The notes beneath the pieces were generated by a model. It saw nothing but the letters and a program-made list of their open reading frames with translations, was not told where the DNA came from and did not search any database. From Candidatus Cloacimonadales bacterium (GTDB lineage: Bacteria > Cloacimonadota > Cloacimonadia > Cloacimonadales > JAFGVF01), in assembly GCA_041672585.1 (NCBI GenBank), contig JBAYZI010000001.1, forward strand, positions 1,014-65,013: a stretch of DNA of 64,000 nt. Direction: 5' to 3'. Made by a program: the position numbers and the translations under genes. Below are positions 25,601 through 56,411 of the stretch, piece by piece (the stretch's first letter is position 1; the number at the start of each line of letters is the position of its first letter).

Positions 25601-25645
25601 TCTTTAGAAAGATTCTAATATTGGCAAGTTTTCAACTCAGGCATT

Positions 25646-25661
25646 TGGCATAAAACATGCT
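25646..25661 (+). promoter_or_regulatory. candidate sigma-54 (-24/-12) promoter for the giant-protein operon
   Basis: TGGCAT-aaaac-ATGCT. GG at 25647-25648 and GC at 25659-25660 have the canonical 12-nt register of TGGCAC-N5-TTGCW, on the strand of the giant gene and beside a divergent EBP gene. Confidence 0.4.
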
Positions 25662-25851
25662 TTTTATTCTCCCAATTTAAAGACTAAATAAACCCTGATT
25701 TATATAAAGACAAAAAAAGCTAAGATAAAAAATAAAAAACTTGACAATTTTTGACATTAGTTAACAAATAGGAAGAATGAACTTATATTTTGGCTAAGGC
25801 TGACTTAATTTTGAATTTCGTAATAATAAAACTAGATAGGAGAAAACGCTA

Positions 25852-26016
25852 ATGATTAGCAAGTTAGACAAGAACTTTTTGACAGTAATGAACCGTGGTG
25901 GACCATCTTTTTGGTGTGGAGAAATTGACAGAAATGCGCAAAATTTTATGAGTTTTGAAACGAGGTTGCCTGAATATTCAGGTATATCCTTACAAATATT
26001 AGAAAAAAAATTGTAA
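25852..26016 (+). CDS. unannotated 54-aa ORF directly upstream of the giant gene (hypothetical)
   Basis: AGGAGA plus 8 nt plus ATG. Encodes MISKLDKNFLTVMNRGGPSFWCGEIDRNAQNFMSFETRLPEYSGISLQILEKKL. The stop lies 17 nt before the giant ORF start. Below the track size cut-off. Confidence 0.3.
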   Translation: MISKLDKNFLTVMNRGGPSFWCGEIDRNAQNFMSFETRLPEYSGISLQILEKKL

Positions 26017-26033
26017 TTTGGAGGTTTCAAATT

Positions 26034-29000
26034 ATGTTTAACAAACATCCGATTTTAATCTTATTGTTCGTCATGCTAACAAGCCTGGCTTTTGCTGCTA
26101 CAACAGTAACTGCTACTCATGTTATTTATGATTCGAATAATGTAGTACAAGAAGTTGCTGTTGTAGGCTCAAGAGTTCACTTTATAGTGAATATGAACTC
26201 AGATGCTACAATAGACGCTGTAAAAATTAAGAGCGATAACATTATCGGGGCATCAGCTTCTATTGAGCTAGCTTTCTCAAGTAAAGCAGCTTATACATAT
26301 GAAGGTGATTATATTGTAGTTCCCGGAGATGTTAACAAGCCTATAGCAGGTGAAGTTTATCAAGTTTTTGTGTATGTTGATGGTGGAACAGACCCCATTA
26401 ATACACAAGCAAACTATTTTTTACCAATCGATAATCAAATTCCATTTATTACTAATGGATTATCAACTCTAATTGAATCGCCTGCCGGGAAAACTACTTT
26501 CGGTATTGGTGATCAAGTAAAGTTTATTTTCCGTAGAAATTGGAATGATTCAACAAAAGATGTCGTTGCAGCAACCCTTGATCTTACCTCAATAGGTGGT
26601 CCTGCTGAAGTGGTTACTACTAGAAATATTGAAATTTTCACAGCTACTTATGTACTAACTGAAAATGGAATTCTTGGTGGATATACCCCTTCAATTGTTG
26701 TACCTATCAAAATGACTGACATAAATGGTAATGTTAGTGTAGTCCACGCTTCCAATGTGATAAGCGGAGATGCAGCTAATAATCCATATCCTGCTGACAC
26801 CAGCAGACCTACTTTCGGTAACATATCTGATTTACAAGACAATGGTCAATTCAGATTTTCACCAGGCAATGATATGTTTGGTATTTGGGATACTGAGCCA
26901 AACACAATTTCAGCTAAAATTGAAATTCCTGGTTTTGGTCAAGTTGGTCAAACAAACAAATTTGTATTATTAGTGCAAAATGAAAATACAGATTCTAATG
27001 TTGGAAATATTGTCTTCACTGCCGGTGCTTCTAATGTTACTATCGCAGGTGATGTGGTTACATTCGTGTGGGATGGTAAAGTTGATGGTAGTGTTTTAAG
27101 TGAAGGCATTTATGGTTTAACCCTAGTTAAGCTTATTGATGTTGCCGGAAATGAGACAACATTAGAATCATTACCTCCGGTAATGAATCCTCAAATTAGC
27201 CAGGGACAAACAGAATTGAATGCTCTGGATTTTGTTGTGGATAATATTGCTCCACTATTTGAAAATCTTAATGGTACACCGTCAGAATTAAGAGTATTTG
27301 ATTCAGCCAGTGATAACCAAAGATACATTATTAATAGACTAATTGATGAATCAACTAATGCCGAAGGCGAAGAAAATAATTTTGGACCTGAGGACACAGT
27401 TACTTCTACAGATGCAGTCTATTTTGCTTTTTCTGTAAAAAGAGATTTTGCCAATGACTTAGAACCGGAAAGAAAAGAGTTCGTAAAGTATTGGGTTGAA
27501 GTAGCTTCTGTTGCTAACCCAACTATGAAAAGATATTTCTACCCTGCTTCTACTCAACTTGGTGGATTAGTTGAAAGTAAAATGGCTATTCCTTTTGTTA
27601 ACACTGAAGCTTATGCTACAGTGAATACAAAAGCTGAATTCTCATGGTCTCCTTCTACACTTGAATATGCAGCCGGTGATTATACTGTAACTGCTTATAT
27701 CCAAGATAATGCAGGTAATATCAGAACTTCAGTAAAAACAGTTGCGTTGGTAAATGATTATGATGGCTATGTTCCACCAATCATCCCACCGGATCCAACT
27801 GATGAATCTTTAATTACATCTTATAAAATTGCAAGCACCCATGAGGGTGGAGCTAATGCATTAGATGCAATGGAAGGCTTAATTCCTATTTTCTATGTGA
27901 ATTCATACTTCCCTGGTGGAGATATGTACTTCAGTACAGGTAGTAATCATATAGATATCGAAATAGAAGTAAGTAATGTAGATAATGCAGAAAAAGTTAT
28001 TTTCACAAGAAATAACCCTAATTTACCTGCTCAATTCAATGCTCAACTTACAACTTTCGATGCTAATAATAGAGTAACTCTGTCAGTTCCAATGTCTGCT
28101 TTTGCAGAAACTGCTACCGGATATTTCACTTATGGTAGTGCAACTTCAGATATTAAAATTGAAGTTCTTACCAGAAATCTCGAAAACGGTGAATTTAATG
28201 TATATAATGTACTTGCAGGAAACAAACAATTCAAAATCGTTAGACCGGTACAGCCTGTTTGGCCTGTGATCGTAAATGATATTGTTGATGTTGTTCCACA
28301 TTGTATTAGCCCCGGTAATCCATCATGGGCTTATGATGCTGTAACCAATCCAGCTAATGAAGCAGGAATGCCTCACAATGGTACAGACCATCCATTTAAT
28401 GACATCTCCTTTGAGATAGATGCTTCCAATGTGAATTATGCTTGGACTCTAAGAGTTTATGATCCGGATAATCCAGCTTTAGTAAAAAGTTCAACCGGTG
28501 TTAGATTAGCAGATTCAGGTGTCTTTAATGGGAGCCTCCAATTTGCCAACTTAACAAACTCAAACAATAATATAGTTGGCGTACTAGGAAGTAAGTTACT
28601 TAATGTAGAGCTAAAAGTTACTCCTGAAGGTTATACCGACACAGGTTATGTTGCTCCACAAACAGCTTACTCTTATGCCGACACTCGCGTAGATAATGAA
28701 AATCCTGTGATTTTAGGAACAGATGGTAATAAATACCTTCCTAATCCCGCCGGAAATACTTTATTCTTAGCTAATGGAATCAATAGCTTCAATTTTGATA
28801 TTGAAACTAACGAACATTTAGTTGAGAATGGTTGGTCAGCTCTTGTGTACAACGAAGATACTCTTCAGTTAGTACCGGGTGCGGGTGTTACTATTACAGC
28901 CGTTGGTTCAGGTGATACATTTACTTGTCCAAATTCAGGTAATGTCGGTTATAAAAACTTTAATATCACTGCCGAAATCCCTGCTTTTGCAGACGGCGTA

Positions 29001-32000
29001 TTAGAGAATGTTAACTATACCTTAATTCTCAGAACACCTAATGACTTTGGTGGAAACCCTGGAAGACATAACAATCCTCCATATCCTTATGATGCTGATG
29101 CTTGGCATACTGACTCTTCAGAAGCTTTCGTACACTTTGTTGTGCTAATGGAAGCTCCGGAAGTAGTAACCACTTCAGCGGCTTTCTACTTTGTTAATAG
29201 TGATAATGACTCGGTTTTAGATAAAGCTGCTCAAGCAGGTAACTTCCAATTTAATGTTAGCATTAAAGGTTATCCTGGAATTACTCCTATTGCAACTACA
29301 AGAGGCGTTGAGAGTTATCTCTGTGAAGTAGATTTCTCGAAATTTACTGGTGTAACAACCACAGCTCCTCAAGTTGTTGATCTTGCCAATGGAAATTGGG
29401 AAATCAAATATACCGGTTCATATACCGGCGTAGCTGCAGGAATCAATACCGGTGATGTTATACCCATCCCTGTTAATTTATCTCTTGGATTTACTCCTGG
29501 AGATGTAGCAGTTCATACTAATCATGATTTCACTTATAACGGTGTAATTTATGATAATGTAGCTCCTATATTTACTAATAATACAGTGCCAAACATTGTA
29601 AATGAAAATAGCGTGTTAACATTAAAATACAAGATCACTGATAATATCGCAGGAGTACAAGACGACAAAGTTACTATCAAATGTTCAGATAGTGCCTTGA
29701 TTCCTAATAATACAGTTGCTACTGCTTTAGCAGATAATGTTTATCAGTGGCTAATTACAATCCCTGCTAACTACACAACAAACACATTAACATTTAATTT
29801 TGTGGCAAAGGATATGTTAGACAATACGAAAACTCATTCTCATATTGTTGACGTAATTCCAATCCCAACTGTTAGTAATGTTGTTGTTCAAAATACCAAT
29901 CCGGCTCATCCTAACATTATTAAAAATGGGGATAAAGTTAAAGTTTCATTTAATTTAACAGACGCTGAAAGAATCGATGCTGTTAATATTACATTGAAAA
30001 ATATGCCGGTATTCCCTATCACTAATTATGTAGATGGCTATAATGAGTTAATTATTAATCCATTTAATACAGCTGGTTATGCTCAATATGAGTTCGTTAC
30101 TGCTAGTGTTGCAATTGTACACCCTTATGAGCGCTTAGCTGATAATTCATCTGCTAACAATAATGCTGCTGCAGTAAAGACATTTGTTGATAATAACCAA
30201 GTTGTTATTAGCGATCTTAAGTTCTTCGAAAATGGTGTAGAAAAAACAGATAATGTATTCTCTGCTGAAGCACATGATGATTTCTATGTAGAAGCTACTT
30301 TCGTAGCTTATGATGGACACATCAGTGCTAACAAGCTTCTTCTCAACTATGCCGGCGTTGTGGCAGGTACTCCTACCTTAATGAGTTCACCTGTTCAAAG
30401 CACACCTGTAACAGGTTTTCCTAAGAATACCTTTACTTATAGATGGGAAAAAAGTAAGTTTGATTATGCTAAATTTGTGGATTCAGTAGCTCCATTCATG
30501 GGCTATGTTGATCTCAACTTCAATTTAGAAATTACATCAGATTATGCTTTCTTTACTGAATATAATGAAGATGCAAGAGCAATTTTAGATGTTCCTACTA
30601 TTACTAATGTAGAGATATTTAATGTTACTGCTCCTGATCAGTTAGCTGATCACGGTAATCATATAGATATTCTTGAAAATAATAATAAAGTTAAAGTTAC
30701 ATTTGACTTAACTTATGCAAATAGAATTTCGGAAGCTGTTATTACTTTAAATAACGGAACTACCAAAACTATAAATGCAGGTTTAGTTAATGGTGTTAAC
30801 ACTGCCATAATCGATGATTTTGGTATTGGAAATCCAGAATATGTTACTTTAAAGGTAGATGAACTTAAAATTATCCACACTAATGAGCACTCAGTATTTG
30901 AATCAATCGATGCAAGTACTAACACCCTCGTTCCATTTGTAGATAACTACCAAGTTAATATTGTGGACTTTAGAGCATTTGTTAATGGTAGCCCAACTGA
31001 CAACTATTTCTCCATTGATTCTAACCAAACTGTTAGATTTGAGGCAGATATTATTGCTCATGCAGGTCAATTAACAACCTCTAATGTTGTGCTCAAATAT
31101 AAAGGAATCACAGCTACTTCAGCTCAATTAGATAATACAGTATTACATTCAGAACCTAAAACAGGTTTTGTTAAGAATACTTATACTTATTCATGGGATA
31201 ATGCAGATTTCGATTATGCTAATTTCTCAAATCAAATTAATGGCTTTGAAGTTGTTCCTTTTGTTATTGAAGCTAGATCAGACTTTGATTTTGTAGCTAC
31301 TCCTTATAATCAAGATGTAGTTGCTCTCAATGTTCCTGAATACACCTTCAATGGTATCTCACCTGAACGTTATAGCGGTTTTGACCCTGACGGTTGGTTT
31401 GCTCCTGAACACGATGTAAGATTAACAATGACTGTTGTAACTCCAATGAGTAACATTAACCCAAGAGCAGAGTTTGATAATATTACCAATAACTTCCCTG
31501 ATGTTAACTGGGTAGCCGGTGATGTTACAACTACTTTTGTAACTGTTGGTGGTGTTAATTATTACACTCATGTAGTTGAATGGATTGAAATACCTGATGT
31601 CCAAGCATGTTGGAATACTTATGCTGATGGAGAAACAGTTCAGGTTGAAATTCAATATAATGACTTCTACATCTCTACTCCAATATCAATATTCAGAGAT
31701 ATCAAAGTTGATTTAGAAGTTCCTACTTATGAAAGATACTCAATTGTACAAGCTGCCGGCACTATCACTGATTTTGCTACAGCCAATGCAATTCCCGGTA
31801 TAAATACCTTAGCTAACCATGTTGGTCCTCATAACTTTGACCTTAGCTTAAACAATCCTGCGGACCTTAATTCTTATGAATTTGATGGTTCTCTTTTTGT
31901 TAAGAGAATTGTTGAAGATATGAATGGTGTTTCAGTTGTTGAAGCAGGTGTAGCGTTGCCAACTATTTCCGGAAACTGGATGACACCTGAGTTGTTAGGA

Positions 32001-35000
32001 AGTGAAGTCGTAAGCCCTCACGAAATAGCCCTTATCTGGAAATTCACTCCGGTTGATCCTACCTTAGTAACTAATACTGATATAGTTGAGATTCAGTTTA
32101 ACCAGTTGGAAGACTTAGTAGGCCATCTAAACTATGCAGGTGTTTATAATTCACCTTCTGCTAGATATGCTGAAGCAGGTCCAATAACTACTATTAACTT
32201 TATCGCCAGCCAAGCTGATGTTGAAGGTATTACTGCTTTCCAATATGATGGAATTGACAGAATGAATTCTGAAACATCACCTTATATTAGTACTGGTGCA
32301 AGAATTGGTTTAATCTTAGAAGTTGAACCTCATCAAAATGATAATGCTACTGTAACTAGTGTAGAGATTCTTGCTGATAATTATAACTTAGCAACAAATG
32401 ACTGGGTTACTTTAGTTGATAACGGTAATAATCAATATTTCTTAGGCTCAGATGTTTTTGTTAATGAAACATCTTTAGGCTGGTTACCATTAGAATACAG
32501 AATTACTTATTCAACTAATGAAGTAAGTCAAAATAGTGTTTCTAATGTTTATAACCTTATTGATGTTACTTCTACTAACTTAGTAGCTATCTCAGTATGG
32601 AGTGAAACATTAGGCGAAAGTGGCATGTATTATGTTACACCTGGTGATGATGCTACTATTAAAGTAGTATTCAGCAGTAATGCTCCATTAATCGGAACAG
32701 TACTTAAACCATTCGTTACATTAACTGATTTCAGCAATATCCTAGATATGGCTGATCCTTATGTTGTTCCTCAAAGTAATATTACTTGGGATGGAACAAA
32801 TTGGGTTGCTGAAGTTACCGGTATTCTTGTAAAAGATAGCCACAGTCTAACTTCACAAGAAGTAAGTGTAACTGCTACAAACATTACAGGACAAATGACC
32901 AGTGCCTCAGGTAAGGTTATCTCTTATGCAGGTTCAGGTCCTATCGTTCCTATAATTAAACATGTTGAATTAATTACAGATAATGCAGTTAACTTGTTAG
33001 CTGTTAGTGGCACTCAAGTCGTTAATCCTGTAGTTAATGTATATATAAATACTGTATATCAAGAATTCATTAACAATGTAACTATTGACCCGATTGCCGG
33101 ATTAGCATTTAGTCCTTATACTGTTGCTTCAACAACAGATCACGACTCTAAATGGTTAGTAACTATCCCGGTTACTATTACAGATCCTACTCTTTTTACC
33201 GAAGGCGATATCGTTACACTAAATATCACATCTATCAGAGATCCGTTTGAAATTACTGCAACAGTATTCGAACACCATGAATCTCTTGATGTAGAAGTTG
33301 ATGGAGATGAATTTGATATAGTTATTAATAACCCTGGAACTCAAAATCCTATTCTTGGTGATTTTGAACTCTTAGTTGATTTTAGTAACTTCGGTGAAAC
33401 TTATGATCCAGCTTATGTTCCTGTTTTAGCTGACTTTGTTATTAGCAGTCCTCAACTTGTTAACGATCTCAATCCAACTAACATGGTTGGTGACGTAGTA
33501 AGCTTAACAATTGATGCTTCTGATTTCACAGCAGATGCAGAAACTCTTGGAAGCTTTGACATCACTGTAACTTATACTAATATCTATGGTTTCATAAAAT
33601 CAGAAACTGAAACAATCTTACTTGATGCAACTGCTCCGGTAGTTATTGCTAATGGTATCACATTTGATTCTGTTTCCGGTCCAACAAGTTATGCTTGGGG
33701 CAGTGTTATAAGTTATGACAAAAACTGGACTTCATTAACAGTAGAATTAGAAGATCCTGTTATGTTTGGTACTAATGGCGTAGGTATTGCTACTGCTAAT
33801 ATTTCAATGGCATTAGGCATTGTTACTCCAAGTACTCCTGCATTCACTAACTTAACTACATCCTTAAATGGTAATGTCCTTGAATTCAGATTCAATGGAA
33901 ATTATTCGGGATTTGATTTAGCTGAAGGCGATTACATCATCACAGTTAATGCTGTTGATGCTTTAGGTAATGCTTATAGCGATACTCAAGAATTCAGATA
34001 TGCACATTCACCTTCCGGTGTTACAGCACTTACCGATCCTTCTATTATCTTAAATAGTGGTATTGATGTTGGACTTGAATTCTTAGTAAATGATCCTGAC
34101 GGTGTAGTAAACACAGTTGAATTCCAAGTTTACTTAGACTCTAATAATGATGGAGACTATATAGATGACCTAGCAAATCTTGTTCTTCAAACAAGTGATA
34201 GTGTTTATCCTTATGGTTTTGAATGGGATTTAAGTAATTCTATTTATACATCATACCAATACAATCCAGATTATGACCTAAATAGTAATGGTGATAATTT
34301 AGATGCTGACGAAAATGTTAGAAACTACATTGTTAGAGTTTTAACAACAAGTAGCCAGATGAGAGCCGTAAGTGACACTTATTTCACTTATTCAGTCGCT
34401 GATGTTACAGCTCCTGAAGTAACTGATGTGTTAGCTGCAGGTTTTAACCCTTACCAAGTTGTTTATGATTATATCACACCAGCTAATAATAATATAGATT
34501 TCACAGCCCTTGTTGGTACTTGGACTGATGTTGACTATGTTGAATTAACTGTTAATGGTGATTTATTAACTATTGACCCGGCAACTTCTTTTGTTAACTG
34601 GGTTTATGATGCAACTGATATTGGTGAAGTTGTTATTACTGCACAAGCATTTGACTTTGTGGGTAATGTTTCAGCTGCTGCTGACTTCTCAACAGTTCTA
34701 ACAATACTTAATCCTTCTTATGATAAATTCTATAACTTAACATTAATAGATTATGATAATTATGATACAGATAATTCTATTGCTAATGGAACTGTCTATT
34801 CACCAAATAATCCATTAATCACAAATAATGTAAGATTATATGCAGAATATCCAAACGGCTTAGCCGGTATTTCAGAAATTCAATTCTATGTTAATAAAAT
34901 TGAAACTGCCACCGGTATTGTTTCTACATTACCTGTTGATAATGACGCTAGCGTTAATCCTCAGTATGGTAATGATAATATAGTATCACCAATTAACTGC

Positions 35001-38000: not shown

Positions 38001-41000
38001 CAAGTTAGCTTCATTGCTAACGGCGGAACTCCTTATGTTGTGGATATCGTAGATAGTGAAGCTCCAATGATAACTGATCTTACAGTAACTCAAGCAGGTA
38101 ACCCTGTTGTTATAGATAGTTGGGTAGCAATTGCTAATGCTCTCGACATCGCTGTAACAGTCGATAATGCAGTACTTGATTTAAGTAGTGTTGTTATTGC
38201 TCTTGATGGTACTGAAGTTTATTCAGTTGCTTATGATACAAATAACCAAGTTGATCCAGTTGCGGTTAACTATACATTAGATATTTCCGCTTTAACAACC
38301 GGAACTTATCAAATTGAAGTTATCACATCTGACTTTGTTGGCCATACATATACTGAAGTATTTGGCTTTAGCGTAGATACTGATGTACCAACAGGTGCTT
38401 TAGTTCTTGTAGAAAATGTTAACAACGAAATCACTCGTGGAGTGGCTTACACATTCAATGCTAATGCAATGGATAATGTTACCGCTACTGATGATTTAGT
38501 AATTAACTACTTCTGGTCAGAAGCTAATGCTGCTGTTTGGACTCCTCTTACATTAGATGCTAACAACCAGTGGAATATTCCTCAAGGTTGGGTAATCGGT
38601 GCAAGTTATGACTTCAAGGCAGAAATGGAAGATGAATACAATAATGTTGGTGAAACTGTTGTTACTTACTCAGTATTTGATAACATCACTCCACTTATTG
38701 CTAATAGCACAAACAACTTAGTAGATGGTTCTATCTTCAATATGAATGATGAAATCGTTCTTACTTTTGATGTTGATGCTTCTAACATCTTAAACAATAA
38801 TATCGAACTCCAATATGCTGATGTACTTAATAATACTTGGATGTCACTCGGCACAACTCCTGCTGTTCTTAACGGCGTTGTTTCTGAAGTAACATTTGGT
38901 AACTTAGGTCTTCCAAGTGGTTTCTATGACTTCAAGGCACTTATTAGTGATCTTGCAGTTCCTGCAAATCAGTTTGATATTGACTTAGCTTCAATGGTTT
39001 ACTTTGATGCTGACGCTCCTGAAGTATTCTTTACTAACATTGATAACACTACCGAGTATGTTCTTGGTAACAATGTAAGTATTAATGCTGATGTTAACTA
39101 CACTGACGGAATAAATAATATTGCTCCTTTAGATGTGGCTTCAGTTGAATTCTTAGTAGATGGTGTTTCCCATACAGTAGTAGAAACTGCTCCTTACACA
39201 TTTGTTTGGAACACAGCTCTTCTTGCTAATGTAGGTACTTACACAATCGAAGCTATCGTAACTGACAATGATAACTTCACAAATAATGTACTACAAAATG
39301 TTGTAGTTGTTACTCCTGATGAAAACGACCCATACGCTGTTATTACCGGTTTCGAATTCAACAACGAAACAATCAGTTCTGACAAAATGTATGCCAAGGT
39401 TACTAATTGGGGTAATAATATCACTTCTGTTGTAGCACAATATACTGAAAATAATGTGGATTGGATTGAATTTGCAATCAATACAACAAACAACGATCCT
39501 CTCTATGATTTCGACTTCAACGCTGAAGCAATTCAAAATGCTATTGCTGTTAAGGTTCTTGTTAAGATGAACAACAACCAAGAATCATCACTTGTTTATC
39601 CTCTTGATGTAACTTTCAACAATGGTATGTTTGACTTAACAGATGCTAATGGAGATATCGAAATTCATGAAAATAACTTAGTAATAGTTGATACAGACAG
39701 CAGACCTAATGTCATTAGAATTGATGAAAATGGTTATGCAGGTTACGAAACTATTAATAATAACAATGAATTCAACTTAGTTGTGAATGCTAATGACGAA
39801 TTACCAGGTTACTGGTTATCAGGTGTTGCTAATAATGCAGCCTGGATTAAATTCGTAAAACTAGACACACAAATTGGTACAGCAACTAATAATGGCGTAA
39901 CAGTTACCTACAACAATCCTTTCTGGTTTGTTATGTTAGATAACGATATGCTCTTAGCTGACCATTATGCACAACTTACAGACCAAGTATTAGTAAGATC
40001 TATTACCAACGGAAACGCACTTTATACATTACCTATTACAGGTACTGTCGCAGCTGAAGGTGATATTGTAGCTCTTGCTTGGGATGCAGTTCTTGCAGAC
40101 TTTGTTGAACTTGATGTAACTTATAATCAAACTAACGCAACTATGACCTTCACAGCTCCTGTTAATACAGTAGTTACTGTTGGTCAATATGTTGGTTTCG
40201 AAATGTTCGTAACTGACTTTGCTCCTGTTAATGATGATGTATATATGAATGCTGGTACATTATGGACTCTTCCAAATGTAACAATGGACTTCACTGTATA
40301 TCATGAAGAAACAGCTCAAGGTTATCAATTACCTGCAGGTTTCGGTTTAGGAAATATTTCAATCACCCTTAATGATGGTGTTAACAATGTGAATAACATT
40401 GCACTTACTAATGGTGTTGTTAGTTTCGATTTAATAAATATGAATGCCGGTGTTAATGAATTAATGGTGAATGTAGAAATGAATGGTTTCAATGCAAACC
40501 AAACATTAACATTCAGTGTTGATAATACAATACCAACAATAGCTATCGACCAAACAGTTATTCTTTCTGCTGCACAAAGAACTCTTTCTGCAACAATGCA
40601 AGATGCTCAAACAGGTCTTGTTGATTATAACTTAGTTATTACCAACAATGCTCCTGCTGTTGCTGCAGTTATTAACGTTCCAATGAACGAAATTACTGTT
40701 GCCGGTAATGTTTATAGTTATGAATTATCTATAGAAGAGTTAGTTACTTTAGTTCCACAACCAATGAGATCAGGTAGAAACAACAGAGCTGTTGCTTCTC
40801 TTAATGTTCAGTGGACTGCTGTAAATAACCTCGACCAAATAAATGTAGTTAATGCTAATATTACAGCTAATGTAGTTGTTAATAGACCTATCATTACAAT
40901 TGATAACTCCGGATTTGAAAACGGCTGGTGGGTAAACCCTGCAATGTCTAATCAAATTCTCATGACTGTTGTTCCTGCTACAGGCAGAACAATTGCTCTT

Positions 41001-43124
41001 GAAAATATCAATGTTAGTATCCTTGCAATAACAGATGTTAACCCTGCTGGAATTCTTATCCAGACATCTAACCCTGTTCCTACCGCAAATGCTAATGAGT
41101 ATAGATTCGGTTTTGCTCAATTACAGCTTCCTAACTCACTCGGTTTGAAGATTAAAGTAAATGCAATTGATGATATCGATGTAAATAATGTTGCTGAACA
41201 AACATTCAGTTTAGATTATATGGATCCTGTTGTTACTGCTACTTCTCCTATAAACCCTGTAGTTAACTATGGTACTAACGCTCAAATCGCCTTCTCATTC
41301 ACAGACCCTCAAGGTCATTTCATTGATGACTATTTTGTACAACACTTCTCAGGTGCTTCAGGAATTGATATTTCAACTCTTGTTGTTACTCTTGATGGTG
41401 TAATTATAAATGGTGAAGTTAATAATGGTTCATTTGCTTATGCTGCTACAGACTTAATTCCTGGCGCACATACTGCAGTTGCTTCTATTAGTGACTTTGT
41501 CGGCAATACAGGTTCCGCAACAGCTAACTTTGAAGTTGTCGGTGGCCCTGCACCAGTCGTAACATTTAGCCCTCTTGCTAATGATACTTGGTGGATTACC
41601 ACTTCTCAACAATATGAATTAGGTTTAACAGTTGAATCAAACCATACAGGTACTGAAATTCATTCTGTTCTAGCTAACATCATAGAGTTACCTAACAACG
41701 AAGTTATCCAAGGACCTATCTCCGTTACTCTTGTAAACGGTGTAGGAACTATCAACTTCCACGGTGGCATCGTATCTGCTGACCAAACAGCAATTAAAGT
41801 TGTAGTTGTAGCTGTAAACGATTGGGCAATTGAAACTACTTCAAGTCAAACTTATCCAATCGATAACAGTAAACCTGAATTAACAATTGTTAACCCGGTT
41901 GAAAATTACTCAACTATAGTTGGAAATAGTGTTAATGTAAGTATTCTTGCAACAGACACAATGTCAGGCTTATTATCATCTTCAATAAAAGTTACTTCTC
42001 TTAACAGTGACTTTGAAGCTGAAGGAATTGATAGTGAAACTCCTGAATCATTTAACCTTGTTGTAACTCCTATAAAAGCTGGAACTTATGTAATCGAAGC
42101 TCAATCTAGAGACTTAGCCGGTAACGTAACTACTGTTACTAGAAACTTCGAAATCACAGCTCCTGCTCCAATCGTTACTATCTTCAATCTTGAAGAATCA
42201 AATGGTTGGGTTAACACACAAAACAATAATAGTATCACATTCACAGTTGATGGAAACGGTTCTGATTTAGATAACACATCTATTATGGCTAGCTTCATTG
42301 CTATTCCAAGTAATGTAGTTATCTATGAACCATTTACTGTTCAACCTACAAATGGTGAATATATCGTTGGAATCCACGGTGGTGTAATTCCTGCAGATGC
42401 AAGTGCAATTAAACTTGTTGTAACAGCTTCTAACGTGGCTGGTGGTAATGCTGTAGCAAACCACAGTTACCCAGTTGACTCTTACAGTCCTACTGTTGTA
42501 TTTGTATCTCCTGAAGCTAATACTGCATATACTCTTGCTGAGAATATGTTTGTAGAAGTTATGATGGAATTATCAGATGTTATGCCTACTGTAAAATCAA
42601 TGGCAACTTCAGGTTTAGACAAGTTAGAGATCATGGTCTATAACAGTGCTAACCAAGTAGTTGTTGATACTACAAAGACAAATGTCTCCAATGTTTACGT
42701 ATGCCGTGTTCCTGTAAGTGGCACAGGTCAATATCTTATTGAAGCAACCATCTATGATAGAGCTGGAAACAGAACTACCAAGATGATGAACTTCAATGTT
42801 GAAGTTGATTACTCTGCCATGAACTTAGAGTTCACTGCAAAACCTTATATGTACCCTTCACCTCTTCAAAGAGGAAGTGTTGGTACTTTCGTAATTCCTA
42901 CTACTAAAGAAGCTCAAGTTACTATTGAAATCTACGATTTCGCCGGTAAGCTTGCTCGTAAAATTAGCCATAACTCAATTGGTGGAAACACTAATAACAT
43001 GATTCAATTCGATGGAAGAACTGACGACGGCAAGAGTTTAGCTCGTGGTGCTTACTTCGCAAGAATTAGAGTGGTTGATGGTGCTTTGGAACTTAATAAG
43101 GTTGTTAAGATAGCAATTCAATAA
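26034..43124 (+). CDS. giant secreted cell-surface protein (5,696 aa) of tandem Ig-like (Big/cadherin-like) domains with C-terminal FlgD-Ig/T9SS-type sorting domain
   Basis: GGAGG RBS and signal peptide (ILILLFVMLTSLAFA). At least 17 domain-boundary motifs of the type VD-x-x-(A/V)-P, often preceded by D-x-x-G-N. Acidic, Cys-poor, N/T/V/D-rich. C-terminus VTIEIYDFAGKLARKI...FDGRTDDGKSLARGAYFARIRV. Confidence 0.85.
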   Translation: MFNKHPILILLFVMLTSLAFAATTVTATHVIYDSNNVVQEVAVVGSRVHFIVNMNSDATIDAVKIKSDNIIGASASIELAFSSKAAYTYEGDYIVVPGDVNKPIAGEVYQVFVYVDGGTDPINTQANYFLPIDNQIPFITNGLSTLIESPAGKTTFGIGDQVKFIFRRNWNDSTKDVVAATLDLTSIGGPAEVVTTRNIEIFTATYVLTENGILGGYTPSIVVPIKMTDINGNVSVVHASNVISGDAANNPYPADTSRPTFGNISDLQDNGQFRFSPGNDMFGIWDTEPNTISAKIEIPGFGQVGQTNKFVLLVQNENTDSNVGNIVFTAGASNVTIAGDVVTFVWDGKVDGSVLSEGIYGLTLVKLIDVAGNETTLESLPPVMNPQISQGQTELNALDFVVDNIAPLFENLNGTPSELRVFDSASDNQRYIINRLIDESTNAEGEENNFGPEDTVTSTDAVYFAFSVKRDFANDLEPERKEFVKYWVEVASVANPTMKRYFYPASTQLGGLVESKMAIPFVNTEAYATVNTKAEFSWSPSTLEYAAGDYTVTAYIQDNAGNIRTSVKTVALVNDYDGYVPPIIPPDPTDESLITSYKIASTHEGGANALDAMEGLIPIFYVNSYFPGGDMYFSTGSNHIDIEIEVSNVDNAEKVIFTRNNPNLPAQFNAQLTTFDANNRVTLSVPMSAFAETATGYFTYGSATSDIKIEVLTRNLENGEFNVYNVLAGNKQFKIVRPVQPVWPVIVNDIVDVVPHCISPGNPSWAYDAVTNPANEAGMPHNGTDHPFNDISFEIDASNVNYAWTLRVYDPDNPALVKSSTGVRLADSGVFNGSLQFANLTNSNNNIVGVLGSKLLNVELKVTPEGYTDTGYVAPQTAYSYADTRVDNENPVILGTDGNKYLPNPAGNTLFLANGINSFNFDIETNEHLVENGWSALVYNEDTLQLVPGAGVTITAVGSGDTFTCPNSGNVGYKNFNITAEIPAFADGVLENVNYTLILRTPNDFGGNPGRHNNPPYPYDADAWHTDSSEAFVHFVVLMEAPEVVTTSAAFYFVNSDNDSVLDKAAQAGNFQFNVSIKGYPGITPIATTRGVESYLCEVDFSKFTGVTTTAPQVVDLANGNWEIKYTGSYTGVAAGINTGDVIPIPVNLSLGFTPGDVAVHTNHDFTYNGVIYDNVAPIFTNNTVPNIVNENSVLTLKYKITDNIAGVQDDKVTIKCSDSALIPNNTVATALADNVYQWLITIPANYTTNTLTFNFVAKDMLDNTKTHSHIVDVIPIPTVSNVVVQNTNPAHPNIIKNGDKVKVSFNLTDAERIDAVNITLKNMPVFPITNYVDGYNELIINPFNTAGYAQYEFVTASVAIVHPYERLADNSSANNNAAAVKTFVDNNQVVISDLKFFENGVEKTDNVFSAEAHDDFYVEATFVAYDGHISANKLLLNYAGVVAGTPTLMSSPVQSTPVTGFPKNTFTYRWEKSKFDYAKFVDSVAPFMGYVDLNFNLEITSDYAFFTEYNEDARAILDVPTITNVEIFNVTAPDQLADHGNHIDILENNNKVKVTFDLTYANRISEAVITLNNGTTKTINAGLVNGVNTAIIDDFGIGNPEYVTLKVDELKIIHTNEHSVFESIDASTNTLVPFVDNYQVNIVDFRAFVNGSPTDNYFSIDSNQTVRFEADIIAHAGQLTTSNVVLKYKGITATSAQLDNTVLHSEPKTGFVKNTYTYSWDNADFDYANFSNQINGFEVVPFVIEARSDFDFVATPYNQDVVALNVPEYTFNGISPERYSGFDPDGWFAPEHDVRLTMTVVTPMSNINPRAEFDNITNNFPDVNWVAGDVTTTFVTVGGVNYYTHVVEWIEIPDVQACWNTYADGETVQVEIQYNDFYISTPISIFRDIKVDLEVPTYERYSIVQAAGTITDFATANAIPGINTLANHVGPHNFDLSLNNPADLNSYEFDGSLFVKRIVEDMNGVSVVEAGVALPTISGNWMTPELLGSEVVSPHEIALIWKFTPVDPTLVTNTDIVEIQFNQLEDLVGHLNYAGVYNSPSARYAEAGPITTINFIASQADVEGITAFQYDGIDRMNSETSPYISTGARIGLILEVEPHQNDNATVTSVEILADNYNLATNDWVTLVDNGNNQYFLGSDVFVNETSLGWLPLEYRITYSTNEVSQNSVSNVYNLIDVTSTNLVAISVWSETLGESGMYYVTPGDDATIKVVFSSNAPLIGTVLKPFVTLTDFSNILDMADPYVVPQSNITWDGTNWVAEVTGILVKDSHSLTSQEVSVTATNITGQMTSASGKVISYAGSGPIVPIIKHVELITDNAVNLLAVSGTQVVNPVVNVYINTVYQEFINNVTIDPIAGLAFSPYTVASTTDHDSKWLVTIPVTITDPTLFTEGDIVTLNITSIRDPFEITATVFEHHESLDVEVDGDEFDIVINNPGTQNPILGDFELLVDFSNFGETYDPAYVPVLADFVISSPQLVNDLNPTNMVGDVVSLTIDASDFTADAETLGSFDITVTYTNIYGFIKSETETILLDATAPVVIANGITFDSVSGPTSYAWGSVISYDKNWTSLTVELEDPVMFGTNGVGIATANISMALGIVTPSTPAFTNLTTSLNGNVLEFRFNGNYSGFDLAEGDYIITVNAVDALGNAYSDTQEFRYAHSPSGVTALTDPSIILNSGIDVGLEFLVNDPDGVVNTVEFQVYLDSNNDGDYIDDLANLVLQTSDSVYPYGFEWDLSNSIYTSYQYNPDYDLNSNGDNLDADENVRNYIVRVLTTSSQMRAVSDTYFTYSVADVTAPEVTDVLAAGFNPYQVVYDYITPANNNIDFTALVGTWTDVDYVELTVNGDLLTIDPATSFVNWVYDATDIGEVVITAQAFDFVGNVSAAADFSTVLTILNPSYDKFYNLTLIDYDNYDTDNSIANGTVYSPNNPLITNNVRLYAEYPNGLAGISEIQFYVNKIETATGIVSTLPVDNDASVNPQYGNDNIVSPINCWDETAGKWNSWITVDPAIYTNNGNYDGTDYTYEFYAVLIDSYTSIEVIQSGVTNVDTGFRVDYLKPTLTINAASVTHTSYTYYDAATDRLVFDLVDNDALAIDINVMIVDYNGINVADNTNIIVDPITNTVSIPWIGLNEIEGEGVITYNVTATDVNGNVSVVTPIDVFVDNQAPQTTIANLAYVTDADNGGAAMNSFHVYDGNPIAVIAENAENLTIQIDRAQILGLSSENTATWANRTQPWYNNANDDIYPPVNLYRNIDGAGWNLIAYDHEVDANNMYEFSITVDTGNIVEFAVIAEDTRGNIEGDVVVRDAFGNVLRPLNGTLEDEELTDAINLTVNVLYPIDITTTIVNHNADDVINGLALLTANVATPTDIISVEFQYLADGVWTALGTDDSMLDVDYKFSIDRDQIPYTVIPGVHVEIIDSNNIATMEEIWENGDNWSDTFTLLRDSYTVNYYVDANNDGVIDGNEIANYLIKTETIMADGYAYQFDTTTIVDGSYLFRVVPFDGLDATDDIAAAVPMNLIIDNTAPEYDVTALNFVTIDGYNVLDENVEFTLAYANANDVHMVRAWLVNIANPADNYRLVYETYAAYDVRTTDFSVNLTTLATPVPDGNYYLKVNVQDFNNNANIQSPVLYNDLHVDTNAPVITQVDNALNMSGIYTATHQFEVTYSDYLAQLLDVNNDALGVKEIEATFTHNAIVDVVDVKVSDDGTLVVFDWTPSQAMMDEVINGHDDILVNVDVKVTDHNDYVSDIFNAGTFVLRSAEVGAKIMVVSDFRNGVETYHQTSVTDNNEIHDVIGGNILNIYAFLPEGNNVIMPNNVSFEYWDGTNWVQYATNATWNPIASFTGTGTISGYSKYMEVNWNIANLDGDYTVRTVSEYGFGNIVNETHLHIWNSTIVPEIVVSTTDGAVTTEVNRGTEYIVSLGNIVSTHPEFLNQVNYMYRFLDANNNVASPWNQLSGFTADDYNWTIGMDYLFAEKVQLAVQVENIFNNIADQVSFIANGGTPYVVDIVDSEAPMITDLTVTQAGNPVVIDSWVAIANALDIAVTVDNAVLDLSSVVIALDGTEVYSVAYDTNNQVDPVAVNYTLDISALTTGTYQIEVITSDFVGHTYTEVFGFSVDTDVPTGALVLVENVNNEITRGVAYTFNANAMDNVTATDDLVINYFWSEANAAVWTPLTLDANNQWNIPQGWVIGASYDFKAEMEDEYNNVGETVVTYSVFDNITPLIANSTNNLVDGSIFNMNDEIVLTFDVDASNILNNNIELQYADVLNNTWMSLGTTPAVLNGVVSEVTFGNLGLPSGFYDFKALISDLAVPANQFDIDLASMVYFDADAPEVFFTNIDNTTEYVLGNNVSINADVNYTDGINNIAPLDVASVEFLVDGVSHTVVETAPYTFVWNTALLANVGTYTIEAIVTDNDNFTNNVLQNVVVVTPDENDPYAVITGFEFNNETISSDKMYAKVTNWGNNITSVVAQYTENNVDWIEFAINTTNNDPLYDFDFNAEAIQNAIAVKVLVKMNNNQESSLVYPLDVTFNNGMFDLTDANGDIEIHENNLVIVDTDSRPNVIRIDENGYAGYETINNNNEFNLVVNANDELPGYWLSGVANNAAWIKFVKLDTQIGTATNNGVTVTYNNPFWFVMLDNDMLLADHYAQLTDQVLVRSITNGNALYTLPITGTVAAEGDIVALAWDAVLADFVELDVTYNQTNATMTFTAPVNTVVTVGQYVGFEMFVTDFAPVNDDVYMNAGTLWTLPNVTMDFTVYHEETAQGYQLPAGFGLGNISITLNDGVNNVNNIALTNGVVSFDLINMNAGVNELMVNVEMNGFNANQTLTFSVDNTIPTIAIDQTVILSAAQRTLSATMQDAQTGLVDYNLVITNNAPAVAAVINVPMNEITVAGNVYSYELSIEELVTLVPQPMRSGRNNRAVASLNVQWTAVNNLDQINVVNANITANVVVNRPIITIDNSGFENGWWVNPAMSNQILMTVVPATGRTIALENINVSILAITDVNPAGILIQTSNPVPTANANEYRFGFAQLQLPNSLGLKIKVNAIDDIDVNNVAEQTFSLDYMDPVVTATSPINPVVNYGTNAQIAFSFTDPQGHFIDDYFVQHFSGASGIDISTLVVTLDGVIINGEVNNGSFAYAATDLIPGAHTAVASISDFVGNTGSATANFEVVGGPAPVVTFSPLANDTWWITTSQQYELGLTVESNHTGTEIHSVLANIIELPNNEVIQGPISVTLVNGVGTINFHGGIVSADQTAIKVVVVAVNDWAIETTSSQTYPIDNSKPELTIVNPVENYSTIVGNSVNVSILATDTMSGLLSSSIKVTSLNSDFEAEGIDSETPESFNLVVTPIKAGTYVIEAQSRDLAGNVTTVTRNFEITAPAPIVTIFNLEESNGWVNTQNNNSITFTVDGNGSDLDNTSIMASFIAIPSNVVIYEPFTVQPTNGEYIVGIHGGVIPADASAIKLVVTASNVAGGNAVANHSYPVDSYSPTVVFVSPEANTAYTLAENMFVEVMMELSDVMPTVKSMATSGLDKLEIMVYNSANQVVVDTTKTNVSNVYVCRVPVSGTGQYLIEATIYDRAGNRTTKMMNFNVEVDYSAMNLEFTAKPYMYPSPLQRGSVGTFVIPTTKEAQVTIEIYDFAGKLARKISHNSIGGNTNNMIQFDGRTDDGKSLARGAYFARIRVVDGALELNKVVKIAIQ

Positions 43125-43128
43125 AATT

Positions 43129-43150
43129 GGGAGGGGGTACGCCCCCTTCC
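43129..43150 (+). other. GC-rich stem-loop with a UACG tetraloop immediately 3' of the giant ORF
   Basis: GGGAGGGGG-tacg-CCCCCTTCC is a 9-bp stem including one G.U pair. It starts 5 nt after the stop codon and has no U-tract. It ends 22 nt before the next start codon. Confidence 0.6.
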
Positions 43151-43171
43151 TCTAATAATTTGGAGGAATAA

Positions 43172-44128: not shown

Positions 44129-44137
44129 GATAGATTG

Positions 44138-44203
44138 TTTTGAGAGGGAATTTTCCCTCTCAAAACTTCTTTTAAGCTCTATGTGGTAGAGCTTAAAAGA
44201 AGT
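44138..44203 (+). other. two adjacent perfect hairpins in the barrel-ompA intergenic gap
   Basis: TTTTGAGAGGG-aatttt-CCCTCTCAAAA forms an 11-bp stem (44138-44165). ACTTCTTTTAAGCTCTA-tgtgg-TAGAGCTTAAAAGAAGT forms a 17-bp stem (44165-44203). Confidence 0.7.
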
Positions 44204-46451: not shown

Positions 46452-46479
46452 AGCCCTTTCTTAACGAGAGGGCTTTTTT
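46452..46479 (+). terminator. rho-independent terminator after the OmpA-family gene
   Basis: AGCCCTTTC-ttaac-GAGAGGGCT followed by TTTTTT. Confidence 0.65.
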
Positions 46480-56380: not shown

Positions 56381-56411
56381 CATAATAATAAATTTGAAAC
56401 AAAAGGTAGCT

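Follow-up and report, generated by a model that had tools for sequence, protein, structure and literature searches.

The giant open reading frame (ORF) at 26034..43124 of the window (the whole 64-kb stretch of Cloacimonadota DNA analysed here; features lie on its forward (+) strand unless the reverse (−) strand is given) probably encodes a surface fibre or adhesin of ~0.2 µm that is mounted via the T9SS (type IX secretion system) and has its own outer-membrane barrel and PorE-like anchor. We put the probability of this reading at roughly 60%. The mature product, with a predicted mass of ~618 kDa, would cross the inner membrane via Sec and pass the outer membrane via the T9SS, with a C-terminal sorting domain (CTD) as guide. 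At least ten Ig-like domains are shown in it by sequence comparison, and some 45–50 β-sandwich domains would stretch into a fibre of order 0.2 µm. The C-terminus would sit at the membrane and the fast-evolving N-terminal half at the far end, in possible contact with a ligand, a partner cell or a particle. The order of the neighbouring genes suggests that the fibre is held by a PorV/PorQ-family barrel, which in turn would be tied to peptidoglycan by a PorE-like OmpA protein.

The reading frame is open throughout, as the first-pass annotation of this DNA had claimed, with 5,696 codons plus a stop in 17,091 nt and zero internal stops. The concern raised there that the ORF could reflect an assembly collapse or expansion can be rejected. 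The ORF is free of tandem repeats, no direct DNA repeat in it exceeds 46 nt, a separate 19.4-kb SPAdes metagenome contig gives a product of identical length (5,696 aa), and the 3′ 2 kb differs by 0–2 mismatches in four independent assemblies. Misassembly is unlikely because long repeats are absent and independent assemblies match. In long contigs, some relatives are called as a pair of ORFs (4,068+1,741, 5,740+1,301 and 4,988+2,038 aa), as would fit an artefact of assembly, several genes fused into one or a pseudogene in decay, but in the window the ORF is unbroken, intact orthologues of 5,634–7,038 aa exist, and dN/dS lies far under 1 over the full length. The artefact or pseudogene reading is largely refuted, and we give it a negligible probability.

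Collinear orthologues of 5,795, 5,634 and 5,959 aa are found in three other Cloacimonadota-type loci, at 73%, 61% and 25–30% identity. Codon comparison gives a dN/dS of ~0.26 for the giant gene, ranging from 0.19 to 0.32 per 400-codon window except in the final 96 codons, where it is 0.41 and dS is low, and shows purifying selection acting over the full length. Divergence is unevenly distributed along the chain: relative to the orthologue in locus L002, the N-terminal half is only ~43% identical and the C-terminal half ~70%, and the housekeeping neighbours are 85–88% identical to those of both L001 and L002. The distal (N-terminal) end of the predicted fibre thus appears variable. The surrounding synteny is conserved and comprises the housekeeping genes murB, metK, RNR, lon, dnaA and leuS. 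The protein family itself is very small: a search of 1.84 billion representative proteins matched only 11 clusters. Seven giant relatives were looked up, and not one of them has a functional name.

Upstream of the giant ORF, a consensus scan and a three-way DNA alignment converge on a promoter-like site at 25751..25778, where a TTGACA −35 hexamer lies within the block AAAAAATAAAAAACTTGACAATTT that is conserved in three genomes. This conserved element is sigma-70-like, and inspection by eye found no good sigma-54 site (TGGCAC-N5-TTGC) on which the neighbouring sigma-54 activator could act. This divergent neighbour (20805..25067, − strand) encodes a 1,420-aa STAND-ATPase/TPR/sigma-54 activator that also adjoins the giant gene in L001 and is not seen beside it in L004 and L005, which are distant loci; it may regulate the giant gene. 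An Rfam scan of 24900–26200 detected no riboswitch, its sole match being a chance miRNA. Between the promoter-like site and the giant gene lies a 54-codon ORF with its own AGGAG (25852..26016), whose stop is separated by 17 nt from the ATG of the giant ORF. It is found in the window, L001 and L002 and is not evident in L003, and its pN/pS of ~0.8 indicates a barely constrained peptide sequence; it may serve as a leader ORF or just form a piece of a conserved 5′ UTR. The Shine-Dalgarno sequence of the giant ORF noted earlier is present as GGAGG at 26020..26024, 9 nt ahead of the ATG, and L001 and L002 have the identical sequence. Inspection of the N-terminus likewise upholds the signal peptide that had been proposed. 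It reads as a Sec/SPI signal at aa 1–21 (26034..26096) in which MFNKHPILILLFVMLTSLAFA, with K4, a hydrophobic core at aa 7–18 and a terminal AFA, precedes an A at the predicted cleavage site, and the hydrophobic core is kept in the orthologues.

The composition is as acidic, Cys-poor and N/T/V-rich as had been described (V 11.3%, N 10.4%, T 9.4%, D+E 12.2%, K+R 3.5%, 7 Cys, calculated pI 4.05). The first-pass annotation had also counted at least 17 domain-boundary motifs. This number depends on the definition, since (V/I/F)-D-x-x-(A/V/K/S)-P taken literally has 12 matches, allowing Y or L at the first position, in keeping with the examples listed there, gives 15 (2.2±1.5 in shuffled sequences), and hydrophobic-D-x-x-x-P gives 26 (8.1±2.8 in shuffles, with a shuffle maximum of 17). 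The approximately threefold enrichment of the last pattern is real, and its D...P pattern is kept at ~14 of the 26 boundary sites in the orthologue of 25–30% identity. The pairing of these boundaries with a preceding D-x-x-G-N strand motif was also correctly seen: D-x-x-G-N occurs 12 times against 2.6±1.6 expected, and about half of the copies stand before a boundary motif.

Domain libraries recognize little of this chain. In the window protein a single Ig domain exceeds its Pfam threshold (Big_7, 28.3 against a cut-off of 24.1), and Big_13 falls just short of its own (26.4 against 27) while reaching E 6e-13 in orthologues. Iterative HMMs recover ~10 Big_13-like domains, and the recognized Ig domains cover <20% of the chain. 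Of the Ig-like and cadherin-like folds that had been invoked, Pfam finds the former, whereas the cadherin families give no match at E≤0.1; RTX matches are also absent from the Pfam results. Whole-protein self-BLAST was uninformative, and self-similarity was examined by tiled BLAST and all-against-all profile-profile comparison with hhalign, which confined it to aa ~1200–1740 and ~4920–5600. A ~245-aa module is tandemly duplicated (aa 1277–1538 and 1520–1781; 29862..31376) with copies 36–40% identical, one of which is missing in the L002 orthologue. Towards the C-terminus, two-domain modules of ~205 aa form an array of three to four (aa ~4965–5600; 40926..42833), each with a Big_13/Big_3_2-like Ig domain ending in D-x-A-G-N. 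The earlier description of an Ig-repeat protein thus holds for the Ig-like or β-sandwich modules and their D-x-x-x-P boundaries, but not for sequence repeats, and detectable Ig domains are few. The N-terminal half has no Pfam match and no PDB match, and when both halves were compared with the PDB as single sequences and as four-orthologue profiles, nothing was retrieved except the CTD of PorU. A word-indexed protein search with aa 1–1200, 1760–2100 and 4497–5696 returned no match, not even the query itself, probably because the Asn/Thr/Val-rich composition swamps the index.

Structure prediction was informative for one part of this sequence 'dark matter'. For the conserved core block at aa 1760–2460 (31311..33413), which has family-invariant WFAPEH and PDVQ motifs, AlphaFold2 with a nine-sequence alignment built from exhaustive-search matches gives an all-β model of approximately five consecutive β-sandwich domains (mean pLDDT 73.5); single-sequence prediction of aa 22–1200 was unusable (mean pLDDT 32.7). 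The confident model covers only ~12% of the protein, and the β-sandwich fold outside aa 1760–2460 is an extrapolation from this one block. On this basis, the >4,000 residues of dark matter appear to be β-sandwich domains too diverged for current domain libraries. Foldseek aligns the modelled block, at E 1e-9 to 1e-6, with Ig heavy chains, C3/A2M MG domains, the EA1 S-layer protein, GhpA (stem fragment 9flw_A, E 1.3e-6), cadherins and MpIBP. Among these matches the cadherins do not stand out above Ig heavy chains and the MG domains of complement, and the cadherin resemblance of the model is one of fold level only, common to Ig and MG domains. The Ca2+ binding that the first-pass annotation had suggested for the linkers is hypothetical. 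Like MpIBP (PDB 4p99) and other RTX adhesins that are stabilized by Ca2+ and have BIg domains in tandem, and like the cadherins, the giant protein would be an extended β-sandwich chain, and its D-N-x-A-P-x-F linker-like motif and very acidic composition recall theirs. However, RTX adhesins such as LapA and MpIBP use type I secretion without a Sec leader and have C-terminal RTX sequences and near-identical repeats, whereas export here would be by Sec and T9SS and the domains are highly divergent.

The presence of the EA1 S-layer protein and the heptameric GhpA stem among the fold matches could also be taken to indicate that the protein is released or multimeric outside the cell and forms a sheath, a lattice like that of an S-layer, a floc matrix scaffold or a GhpA-like heptameric hook rather than a monomeric adhesin, and the strongly acidic, Asn/Thr-rich composition would fit a hydrated matrix. 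Nevertheless, the sequence is devoid of any pointer to oligomerization, it has only 7 Cys and lacks the disulfide pattern described for GhpA, and the conserved anchor-type neighbours favour cell attachment. We therefore consider such a structure very improbable.

The sorting-type C-terminus recognized in the first-pass annotation can be specified as a T9SS type A CTD of FlgD_ig-like subtype (42849..43121), which occupies the last ~90 aa and exceeds the NCBIfam cut-off of 23 for TIGR04183 (25.3 bits with the half-protein as query and 29.1 bits with the last 100 aa). Its motifs are YP(S/N)P, LARGxYF and KVVKIAI, and it can be aligned to the canonical CTD that an M1 peptidase encoded in the same window has (YPxP, GxY, C-terminal K). 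PF18962 matches three of four orthologues (best E 7.7e-7), and the orthologue profile finds the PorU CTD (6za2_A, E 3.3e-4) as its sole PDB match. The type B CTD model TIGR04131/CHU_C gives weak matches in two orthologues (E 9e-4). The T9SS-related genes within the 64-kb window are the PorV/Q-family gene, the PorE-like gene and the M1 peptidase as a second CTD cargo; the core genes PorK/L/M/N, Sov and PorU are absent from it. Cloacimonadota are among the phyla that may possess a T9SS (PMC11285876).

The best clue to mechanism is provided by this T9SS context and by two downstream anchor-type genes. The spacer of ~47 nt between the giant ORF and the first of them is near-identical throughout in three genomes and includes a conserved, GC-rich intercistronic hairpin, GGAGGGGG-TACG-CCCCCTTCC (43130..43150), with no T-run 3′ of it. 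The first gene (43172..44128, 47 nt 3′ of the giant ORF) encodes a 318-aa outer-membrane β-barrel of the PorV/PorQ (FadL-like) type with a signal peptide. It matches NF033709 over the full length (E 2.5e-20, 73.3 bits, cut-off 90) and PorQ (E 3e-15, 56 bits, cut-off 220), in both cases below the cut-off, and its best PDB match is PorV (6h3i_F, E 0.03). Its orthologues show weak Pfam matches to Toluene_X and PorV, and neither the barrel nor its orthologues match PorP_SprF in Pfam. Canonical PorV, at ~390–400 aa, is longer. We read the 318-aa protein as a divergent member of the PorV/PorQ family, of undefined subtype. A stem-loop (44137..44166) whose stem measures 13 bp and has TTCTTTT after it, resembling a terminator or attenuator, separates it from the second gene (44241..46430), whose 729-aa PorE-like product combines a PD40 β-propeller repeat (Pfam E 1.7e-12) with an OmpA peptidoglycan-binding domain (5e-21). 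This product aligns with positions 90–601 of the 648 in the PorE profile NF052230 (E 7e-60, 203 bits, below the cut-off of 600) and with CHU_0125_OmpA (E 8e-61, below the equivalog cut-off), and its orthologues in L004 and L005 also contain CarboxypepD_reg. An intrinsic-terminator-like hairpin with a T-run (46452..46474) closes the three-gene unit. The first-pass annotation had overlooked both anchor-type genes and the T9SS context.

The order of giant gene, ~318-aa PorV/Q-like barrel gene and PorE-like OmpA gene is kept in six of six loci (the window and L001–L005), with a barrel-position product of 318–319 aa in L001–L005, and it holds across giant proteins of 25–100% identity. It is because this order is conserved that a dedicated anchor is inferred. 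We propose, from the gene neighbourhood, that the barrel is the cognate anchor of the giant protein and the PorE-like protein the periplasmic tie of that anchor; the two neighbouring genes probably anchor the giant protein. Because it adjoins two probable anchor genes, the giant protein would be related by design to the giant bacterial 'fibre' adhesins, in line with the earlier likening of this protein to gliding or biofilm adhesins: the proteins most analogous to it are giant adhesins for gliding or attachment.

The layout parallels GhpA-GhpB-GhpC and SprB-SprF. In Aureispira sp. (Bacteroidota), GhpA (5,898 aa) is encoded with the PorP-like GhpB and the PorE-like GhpC and forms 240-nm hooks (bioRxiv 10.1101/2024.01.29.577165). 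Both loci have three genes, for a giant protein (5.7–5.9 thousand residues) that has both a Sec leader and a sorting domain for the T9SS, a barrel and a PorE-like OmpA protein, and both giant proteins are chains of Ig-like domains. They differ in that the present barrel is of the PorV/PorQ family rather than the PorP family of GhpB, and in that the giant protein has 7 Cys while many disulfides are described for GhpA. Aureispira also belongs to another phylum and has another lifestyle than Cloacimonadota, which are anaerobes. Searches for GhpA homology with phmmer and with profiles against the PDB, which holds GhpA fragments, gave no GhpA match and nothing outside the CTD. The heptameric hollow stem, the N-terminal hook head and prey capture are features of GhpA that would be hypothetical here. 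The protein described here is as yet unstudied, and appears to be a relative of the known giant fibre adhesins at the level of design, not a detectable sequence homologue of GhpA.

Cargo-barrel complexes are also represented by PG1035-PorP-PorE of Porphyromonas gingivalis and by SprB-SprF of Flavobacterium johnsoniae (PMC9143113). These resemble the present locus, as it is proposed to work, in having a T9SS cargo, a cognate barrel encoded alongside and a PorE tie to peptidoglycan, and SprB is itself a giant Ig-like fibre. However, SprB and PG1035 pair a type B CTD with a PorP-like barrel, as opposed to a type A CTD with a PorV/Q-like barrel here. A SprB-type mobile gliding adhesin, moved over the surface by a gliding machinery, would share with the giant protein a size near that of SprB (6,497 aa), an Ig-like chain, T9SS secretion and an adjoining outer-membrane barrel gene. 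Yet SprB-repeat matches are lacking in the window protein at E≤0.1 and in Pfam scans of the orthologues at E≤0.01, the type B matches are weak and confined to two orthologues, the barrel is not PorP/SprF-like, and gliding genes are absent from the window. We know of no report of gliding in Cloacimonadota and regard a motility adhesin as very improbable.

A more serious alternative to the anchored fibre is that the giant protein is an ordinary T9SS cargo of type A, from which PorU takes off the CTD and which is then linked covalently to anionic LPS as a surface coat or adhesin, with the neighbouring genes being general T9SS components that share an operon with the largest cargo of the organism by chance. 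The CTD fits the type A model and aligns with that of the M1 peptidase, and cleavage by PorU with replacement by anionic LPS is the documented, normal fate of type A CTDs in P. gingivalis (PMC9143113). If the type A CTD were cleaved and linked in this way, a protein anchor would be needless, which counts against our preferred reading. In Porphyromonas, PorE and PorV/PorQ belong to the core or the attachment machinery, and the attachment complex there comprises PorQ, PorU, PorV and PorZ (PMC11285876). The barrel and PorE-like protein could likewise be the genome's only, general-purpose T9SS copies, and this too would count against a dedicated anchor. Their scores below the NCBIfam cut-offs and the lack of core T9SS genes in the window weigh on the same side. 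On the other hand, survival of the three-gene order at 25–30% identity of the giant protein is more typical of a functional unit, and the barrel, at only 318 aa, scores under both the PorV and PorQ equivalog cut-offs. Moreover, the best structural-database match of the CTD is to PorU, and both PorU and PorZ are reported to retain their CTDs while bound to PorV/PorQ-family barrels. We consider ordinary cargo a real, though minority, possibility.

The PorZ-PorQ and PorU-PorV pairs of the Porphyromonas attachment complex also come close to the present system. Their barrels belong to the PorV/PorQ family, and the CTD profile of the giant protein finds that of PorU; the difference is that PorZ and PorU are machinery components of ~80–130 kDa as compared to a 618-kDa fibre. 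The documented cognate barrel anchors are all PorP-like and paired with type B CTDs (PMC9143113), and none is PorV/Q-like, which weighs against our preferred reading. The locus may represent a third, independent mode of mounting giant fibres on the surface of a diderm, in which the type A CTD stays in place and docks on a PorV/PorQ barrel of its own and a PorE paralogue ties the assembly to peptidoglycan, a proposal that we advance only tentatively.

If this third mode is real, the rule of cognate barrel anchors would reach beyond PorP-like barrels, type B CTDs and Bacteroidota. The combination of type A cargo, PorV/Q-like barrel and PorE-like protein makes the locus a T9SS test case, and the pairing, if confirmed, would generalize the anchoring model of SprB/SprF, PG1035/PorP/PorE and GhpA/B/C. 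At 618 kDa and conserved beside its own anchor genes, the giant protein is a candidate for the main surface appendage of Cloacimonadota, which are abundant in anaerobic digesters. These bacteria are abundant, uncultured fermenters and syntrophs of anoxic waters (PMC8542988). The giant protein may bear on how they attach to partners or substrates: if the third mode is real, a ~0.2-µm appendage whose distal half diversifies rapidly could be the means by which these uncultured syntrophs catch hold of particles or partner cells in anaerobic digesters.

The giant gene is a single open frame on the + strand (26034-43124) that starts with ATG and encodes 5,696 aa, with no internal stop on translation, as the first-pass annotation had claimed. 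The Shine-Dalgarno site reported with it is present as GGAGG at 26020-26024 (+), ahead of the ATG, and two related genomes carry the surrounding 40 nt of the start region unchanged. Judged by eye, MFNKHPILILLFVMLTSLAFA|ATT at the N-terminus looks like a Sec/SPI leader, in keeping with the signal peptide proposed earlier, and the sorting-type C-terminus proved to be a T9SS type A sorting domain (CTD) that covers the last ~90 aa and scores above the NCBIfam cut-off. The description of the protein as acidic, Cys-poor and N/T/V-rich also holds (D+E 696 residues vs K+R 200; 7 Cys; N 10.4%, T 9.4%, V 11.3%), with a calculated pI of 4.05 and a calculated mature mass of ~618 kDa. Although D, T and V are abundant, the protein has few copies of the Bacteroidota O-glycosylation sequon D-(S/T)-(A/I/L/V/M/T): 13, where residue shuffles give 28.8±5.1. 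Immediately upstream (25852-26016, +) is a 54-codon ORF that has an AGGAG of its own, stops 17 nt before the giant-ORF ATG and is found in three genomes (also L001 7692-7856 and L002 816-980, the loci of two relatives). Its pN/pS of ~0.8 indicates a barely constrained peptide; its last ~50 nt and the giant-gene ribosome-binding site are identical in all three genomes. A leader or coupling ORF is one possible reading of it, a conserved 5′ UTR another.

The giant-ORF region contains neither tandem repeats nor direct DNA repeats >46 nt or >76% identical, so that an assembler would meet no repeat there to collapse or expand. The called product on a 19.4-kb SPAdes contig is also 5,696 aa, the final 2 kb of the ORF recurs in four assemblies with 0-2 mismatches, and the exact 318-aa protein encoded downstream occurs on 11 contigs from independent metagenomes. 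The misassembly that the first-pass annotation had wanted checked is thereby all but ruled out. Intact, collinear orthologues are encoded at L001 (5,795 aa, 73% identity; complete chromosome OY759729.1, labelled Candidatus Cloacimonadales) and L002 (5,634 aa, 61%; a Cloacimonadota MAG), and a third, of 5,959 aa on a 49%-GC metagenome contig (L003), aligns end to end at 25-30% identity. Against L001, dN/dS (Nei-Gojobori) is 0.26 overall and 0.19-0.32 in every 400-codon window except the last 96 codons, where it is 0.41 and dS is unusually low; the giant ORF is thus coding and constrained over its full length. Although long contigs show several relatives as two separate ORFs, these results essentially exclude an assembly artefact or pseudogene. 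The split members lie on megabase-scale contigs (locus L005 and the clusters of search matches P0002, P0004 and P0005). At L005, ORFs of 5,740 and 1,301 aa overlap by 32 nt (8001-8032), with an intact close relative of 7,031 aa; others read 4,068+1,741 aa and 4,988+2,038 aa, with intact close relatives of 5,883 and 7,038 aa. Either indel errors of long reads or real frameshift or phase variation could explain the splits.

Big_7 is the sole Pfam domain above threshold in the giant protein, with sub-threshold matches to Big_13, Big_3_2, FlgD_ig and Y_Y_Y all in its C-terminal half. In orthologue scans Big_13 reaches E 6e-13 and Por_Secre_tail also appears, and an iterative HMM seeded on aa 5487-5600 converged on 10 Big_13-like domains. 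The N-terminal 2,850 aa are essentially blank in Pfam scans of all four proteins, and PDB sequence searches of the giant protein (single-sequence and profile) returned nothing beyond the PorU CTD. Tiled BLAST and an all-against-all profile-profile comparison of 93 windows detected internal similarity in two places only, a duplicated ~245-aa module (aa 1277-1781, one copy absent in L002) and an array of ~205-aa modules (aa ~4965-5600). The earlier term Ig-repeat protein therefore stands for its Ig-like domains, which the domain scan that it called for did recover, but not for repetition: it is no repeat protein as the term is normally used, and from its sequence it reads as a chain of mostly unique, strongly diverged modules. 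A 6,492-aa relative (P0003) carries a ~670-aa core block, corresponding to aa 1760-2430 of the window protein, twice (aa 928-1659 and 1886-2573), which argues that the family grows via duplication of large blocks.

The number of domain-boundary motifs varies with the definition of the pattern. At least 17 had been counted, but the literal pattern gives 12; their enrichment is real, with 15 vs 2.2±1.5 in residue shuffles once Y or L is also allowed first, as among the examples originally listed, and 26 vs 8.1±2.8 expected for hydrophobic-D-x-x-x-P. At ~14 of these 26 sites the D...P pattern is kept in a 25-30%-identical orthologue, which places the boundary motif under selection. The strand motif D-x-x-G-N, also noted earlier, occurs 12 times vs 2.6 expected. 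Ca2+ binding is plausible from the linker-like motif D-N-x-A-P-x-F and a net charge of ~-500. Against this, cadherin families gave no match to the giant protein in the Pfam scan, and cadherins form just one class of several among the fold matches below.

An exhaustive HMMER search of 1.84 billion representative proteins with aa 1760-2959 yielded 11 clusters at E≤1e-3, 7 of them giant relatives (members of 5,506 to 7,038 aa, none with a functional name); the family is very rare in sequence space. One search match, P0006 (NCBI MFA7097355.1), is a 2,005-aa N-terminal fragment similar to the L003 protein, on a 6-kb contig of a MAG labelled 'Gammaproteobacteria bacterium' in GenBank, probably a binning error. 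Segments of the HMMER matches supplied a 9-row alignment, from which AlphaFold2 predicted aa 1760-2460, the most widely conserved block of the family with invariant WFAPEH and PDVQ motifs, as all-beta (mean pLDDT 73.5), in ~5 consecutive domains of roughly 115-150 aa. For this model Foldseek gave 134 PDB matches at E≤0.001. Highest among them rank multi-domain beta-sandwich chains of several fold classes: IgE, IgA and IgM heavy chains, complement C3/C5 and alpha-2-macroglobulin, the Bacillus anthracis EA1 S-layer, a stem fragment of the Aureispira grappling-hook protein GhpA (9flw_A), cadherins and protocadherins, and the Ca2+-stabilised ice adhesin MpIBP (4p99). The low TM-scores are what whole-chain superposition of flexible bead chains would be expected to give. 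Structure prediction, proposed earlier as a check, thus supports a beta-sandwich chain for aa 1760-2460; a single-sequence model of the N-terminal tip (aa 22-1200), at pLDDT 32.7, is too poor to read. Extrapolation at ~115-130 aa per domain would give the giant protein ~45-50 domains.

The window is chromosomal, with murB, metK, class II ribonucleotide reductase, lon, dnaA and leuS among the neighbours, whose order matches that in L001 and L002. Since dnaA (56334-57746, +; TIGR00362 E 7e-151) is ~13 kb downstream of the giant gene, the locus lies near the probable replication origin. The 318-aa protein (43172..44128, +) starts 47 nt after the giant stop and has a signal peptide. It matches the PorV/PorQ family NF033709 over its full length (E 2.5e-20; 73 bits, below the cut-off of 90) and the PorQ model at E 3e-15, and PorV (6h3i) is the best PDB match of its orthologue profile; in Pfam it shows weak FadL/Toluene_X and PorV matches and none to PorP_SprF. 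The next gene (44241..46430, +) encodes a 729-aa PD40 and OmpA protein that matches PorE and CHU_0125-type OmpA models at ~1e-60, below equivalog cut-offs. An 18-nt tandem repeat within it, TGAAACTCCTAAGGCAAC (3.2 copies, 46010-46067, +), encodes a short peptide repeat in a C-terminal extension after the OmpA domain. All five loci examined in relatives (L001, L002, L003, L004 and L005) keep the order of giant gene, 318-319-aa barrel and 730-911-aa propeller/CRD/OmpA protein, which therefore holds across the whole known family.

Synonymous divergence falls at the giant-gene/barrel-gene junction (42834-43500): the final 96 giant-gene codons have a pS of 0.18-0.29 and the opening third of the barrel gene one of 0.25-0.35, vs ~0.37-0.64 elsewhere in both. 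In the 47-nt spacer, which includes the hairpin GGAGGGGG-TACG-CCCCCTTCC (43130-43150), hardly a position varies; together these suggest a constraint on the RNA or recent gene conversion. A gene at 20805-25067 (-), divergent from the giant gene and at the same place in L001 (84% identity), encodes a 1,420-aa protein in which an N-terminal STAND/AAA_16 NTPase and many TPR repeats are joined to a sigma-54 activator AAA+ domain and a Fis-type HTH; by eye, no clear sigma-54 promoter was found between the two genes. Upstream of the giant orthologue, the intergenic region of L001 (~6810-7060) carries ~10-12 tandem copies of the 20-nt motif GCAAGGTCTCTACTTAACAT, an array absent from the window and L002. 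A second T9SS cargo, a 952-aa M1 metallopeptidase (52975-55833, -), has a type A CTD (Por_Secre_tail E 4.9e-16) that aligns with the giant-protein CTD at YPNP, GxY and the C-terminal Lys.

Giant Ig-like fibres that the T9SS secretes, served by a cognate outer-membrane barrel and a PorE-like tie, are already known as a kind of system. Aureispira ghpA encodes a 5,898-aa, 240-nm protein with an Ig-like stem and a T9SS sorting domain; the genes after it, ghpB and ghpC, encode homologues of PorP and PorE respectively, which are the proposed basal body (bioRxiv 10.1101/2024.01.29.577165). By this analogy the extended giant protein would be of the order of 0.2 µm. Complexes of PG1035-PorP-PorE (P. 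gingivalis) and SprB-SprF (F. johnsoniae) have been demonstrated (PMC9143113). Our locus likewise sets genes for a giant T9SS Ig-like protein, a barrel and a PorE-type protein in series, and the likeness to giant adhesins drawn at first reading is apt for the design, a putative T9SS-secreted Ig-like fibre with a barrel that parallels GhpA and SprB. Its family comes from a different phylum and has no detectable sequence relationship to either. An SprB-like gliding adhesin is very unlikely, the family-defining features tested not having been found. Unlike in the GhpA and SprB systems, a type A CTD is paired here with a PorV/PorQ-family barrel, for which PorZ-PorQ and PorU-PorV are the only analogues; this pairing, and a sequence mostly invisible to current domain libraries, also set the family apart. 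PorZ and PorU keep their CTDs. The PorU CTD, as the only PDB match of the giant-protein CTD profile, agrees weakly with the analogy. The standard type A route, in which the CTD would be cleaved, the giant protein linked to A-LPS and the neighbours be general machinery, is a less likely alternative.

The giant gene is intact and constrained, encodes a Sec-type leader, Ig-like/beta-sandwich modules and a type A CTD, and belongs to a conserved three-gene unit whose other members encode the PorV/Q-like barrel and the PorE-like OmpA protein. We favour a retained fibre: the giant protein would be exported by Sec and then the T9SS and stand out from the cell as a long fibre, its C-terminus lying at the membrane, where the adjacent barrel would hold it and the PorE-like protein would couple the barrel to peptidoglycan. 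That it forms a multimeric or matrix structure is improbable. Relative to L002 the N-terminal half is ~43% identical and the C-terminal half ~70%, and flanking housekeeping proteins are 85-88% identical to both L001 and L002. The much faster evolution of the N-terminal half, distal in a retained fibre, would fit an end that is exposed or binds a ligand and on which diversifying pressure or recombination acts. Given Cloacimonadota ecology, a natural guess is that the protein attaches the cells to partner cells, to flocs or to particulate substrate, and the locus, as read from sequence and synteny, offers a useful and testable lead for researchers of the T9SS and of syntrophy.
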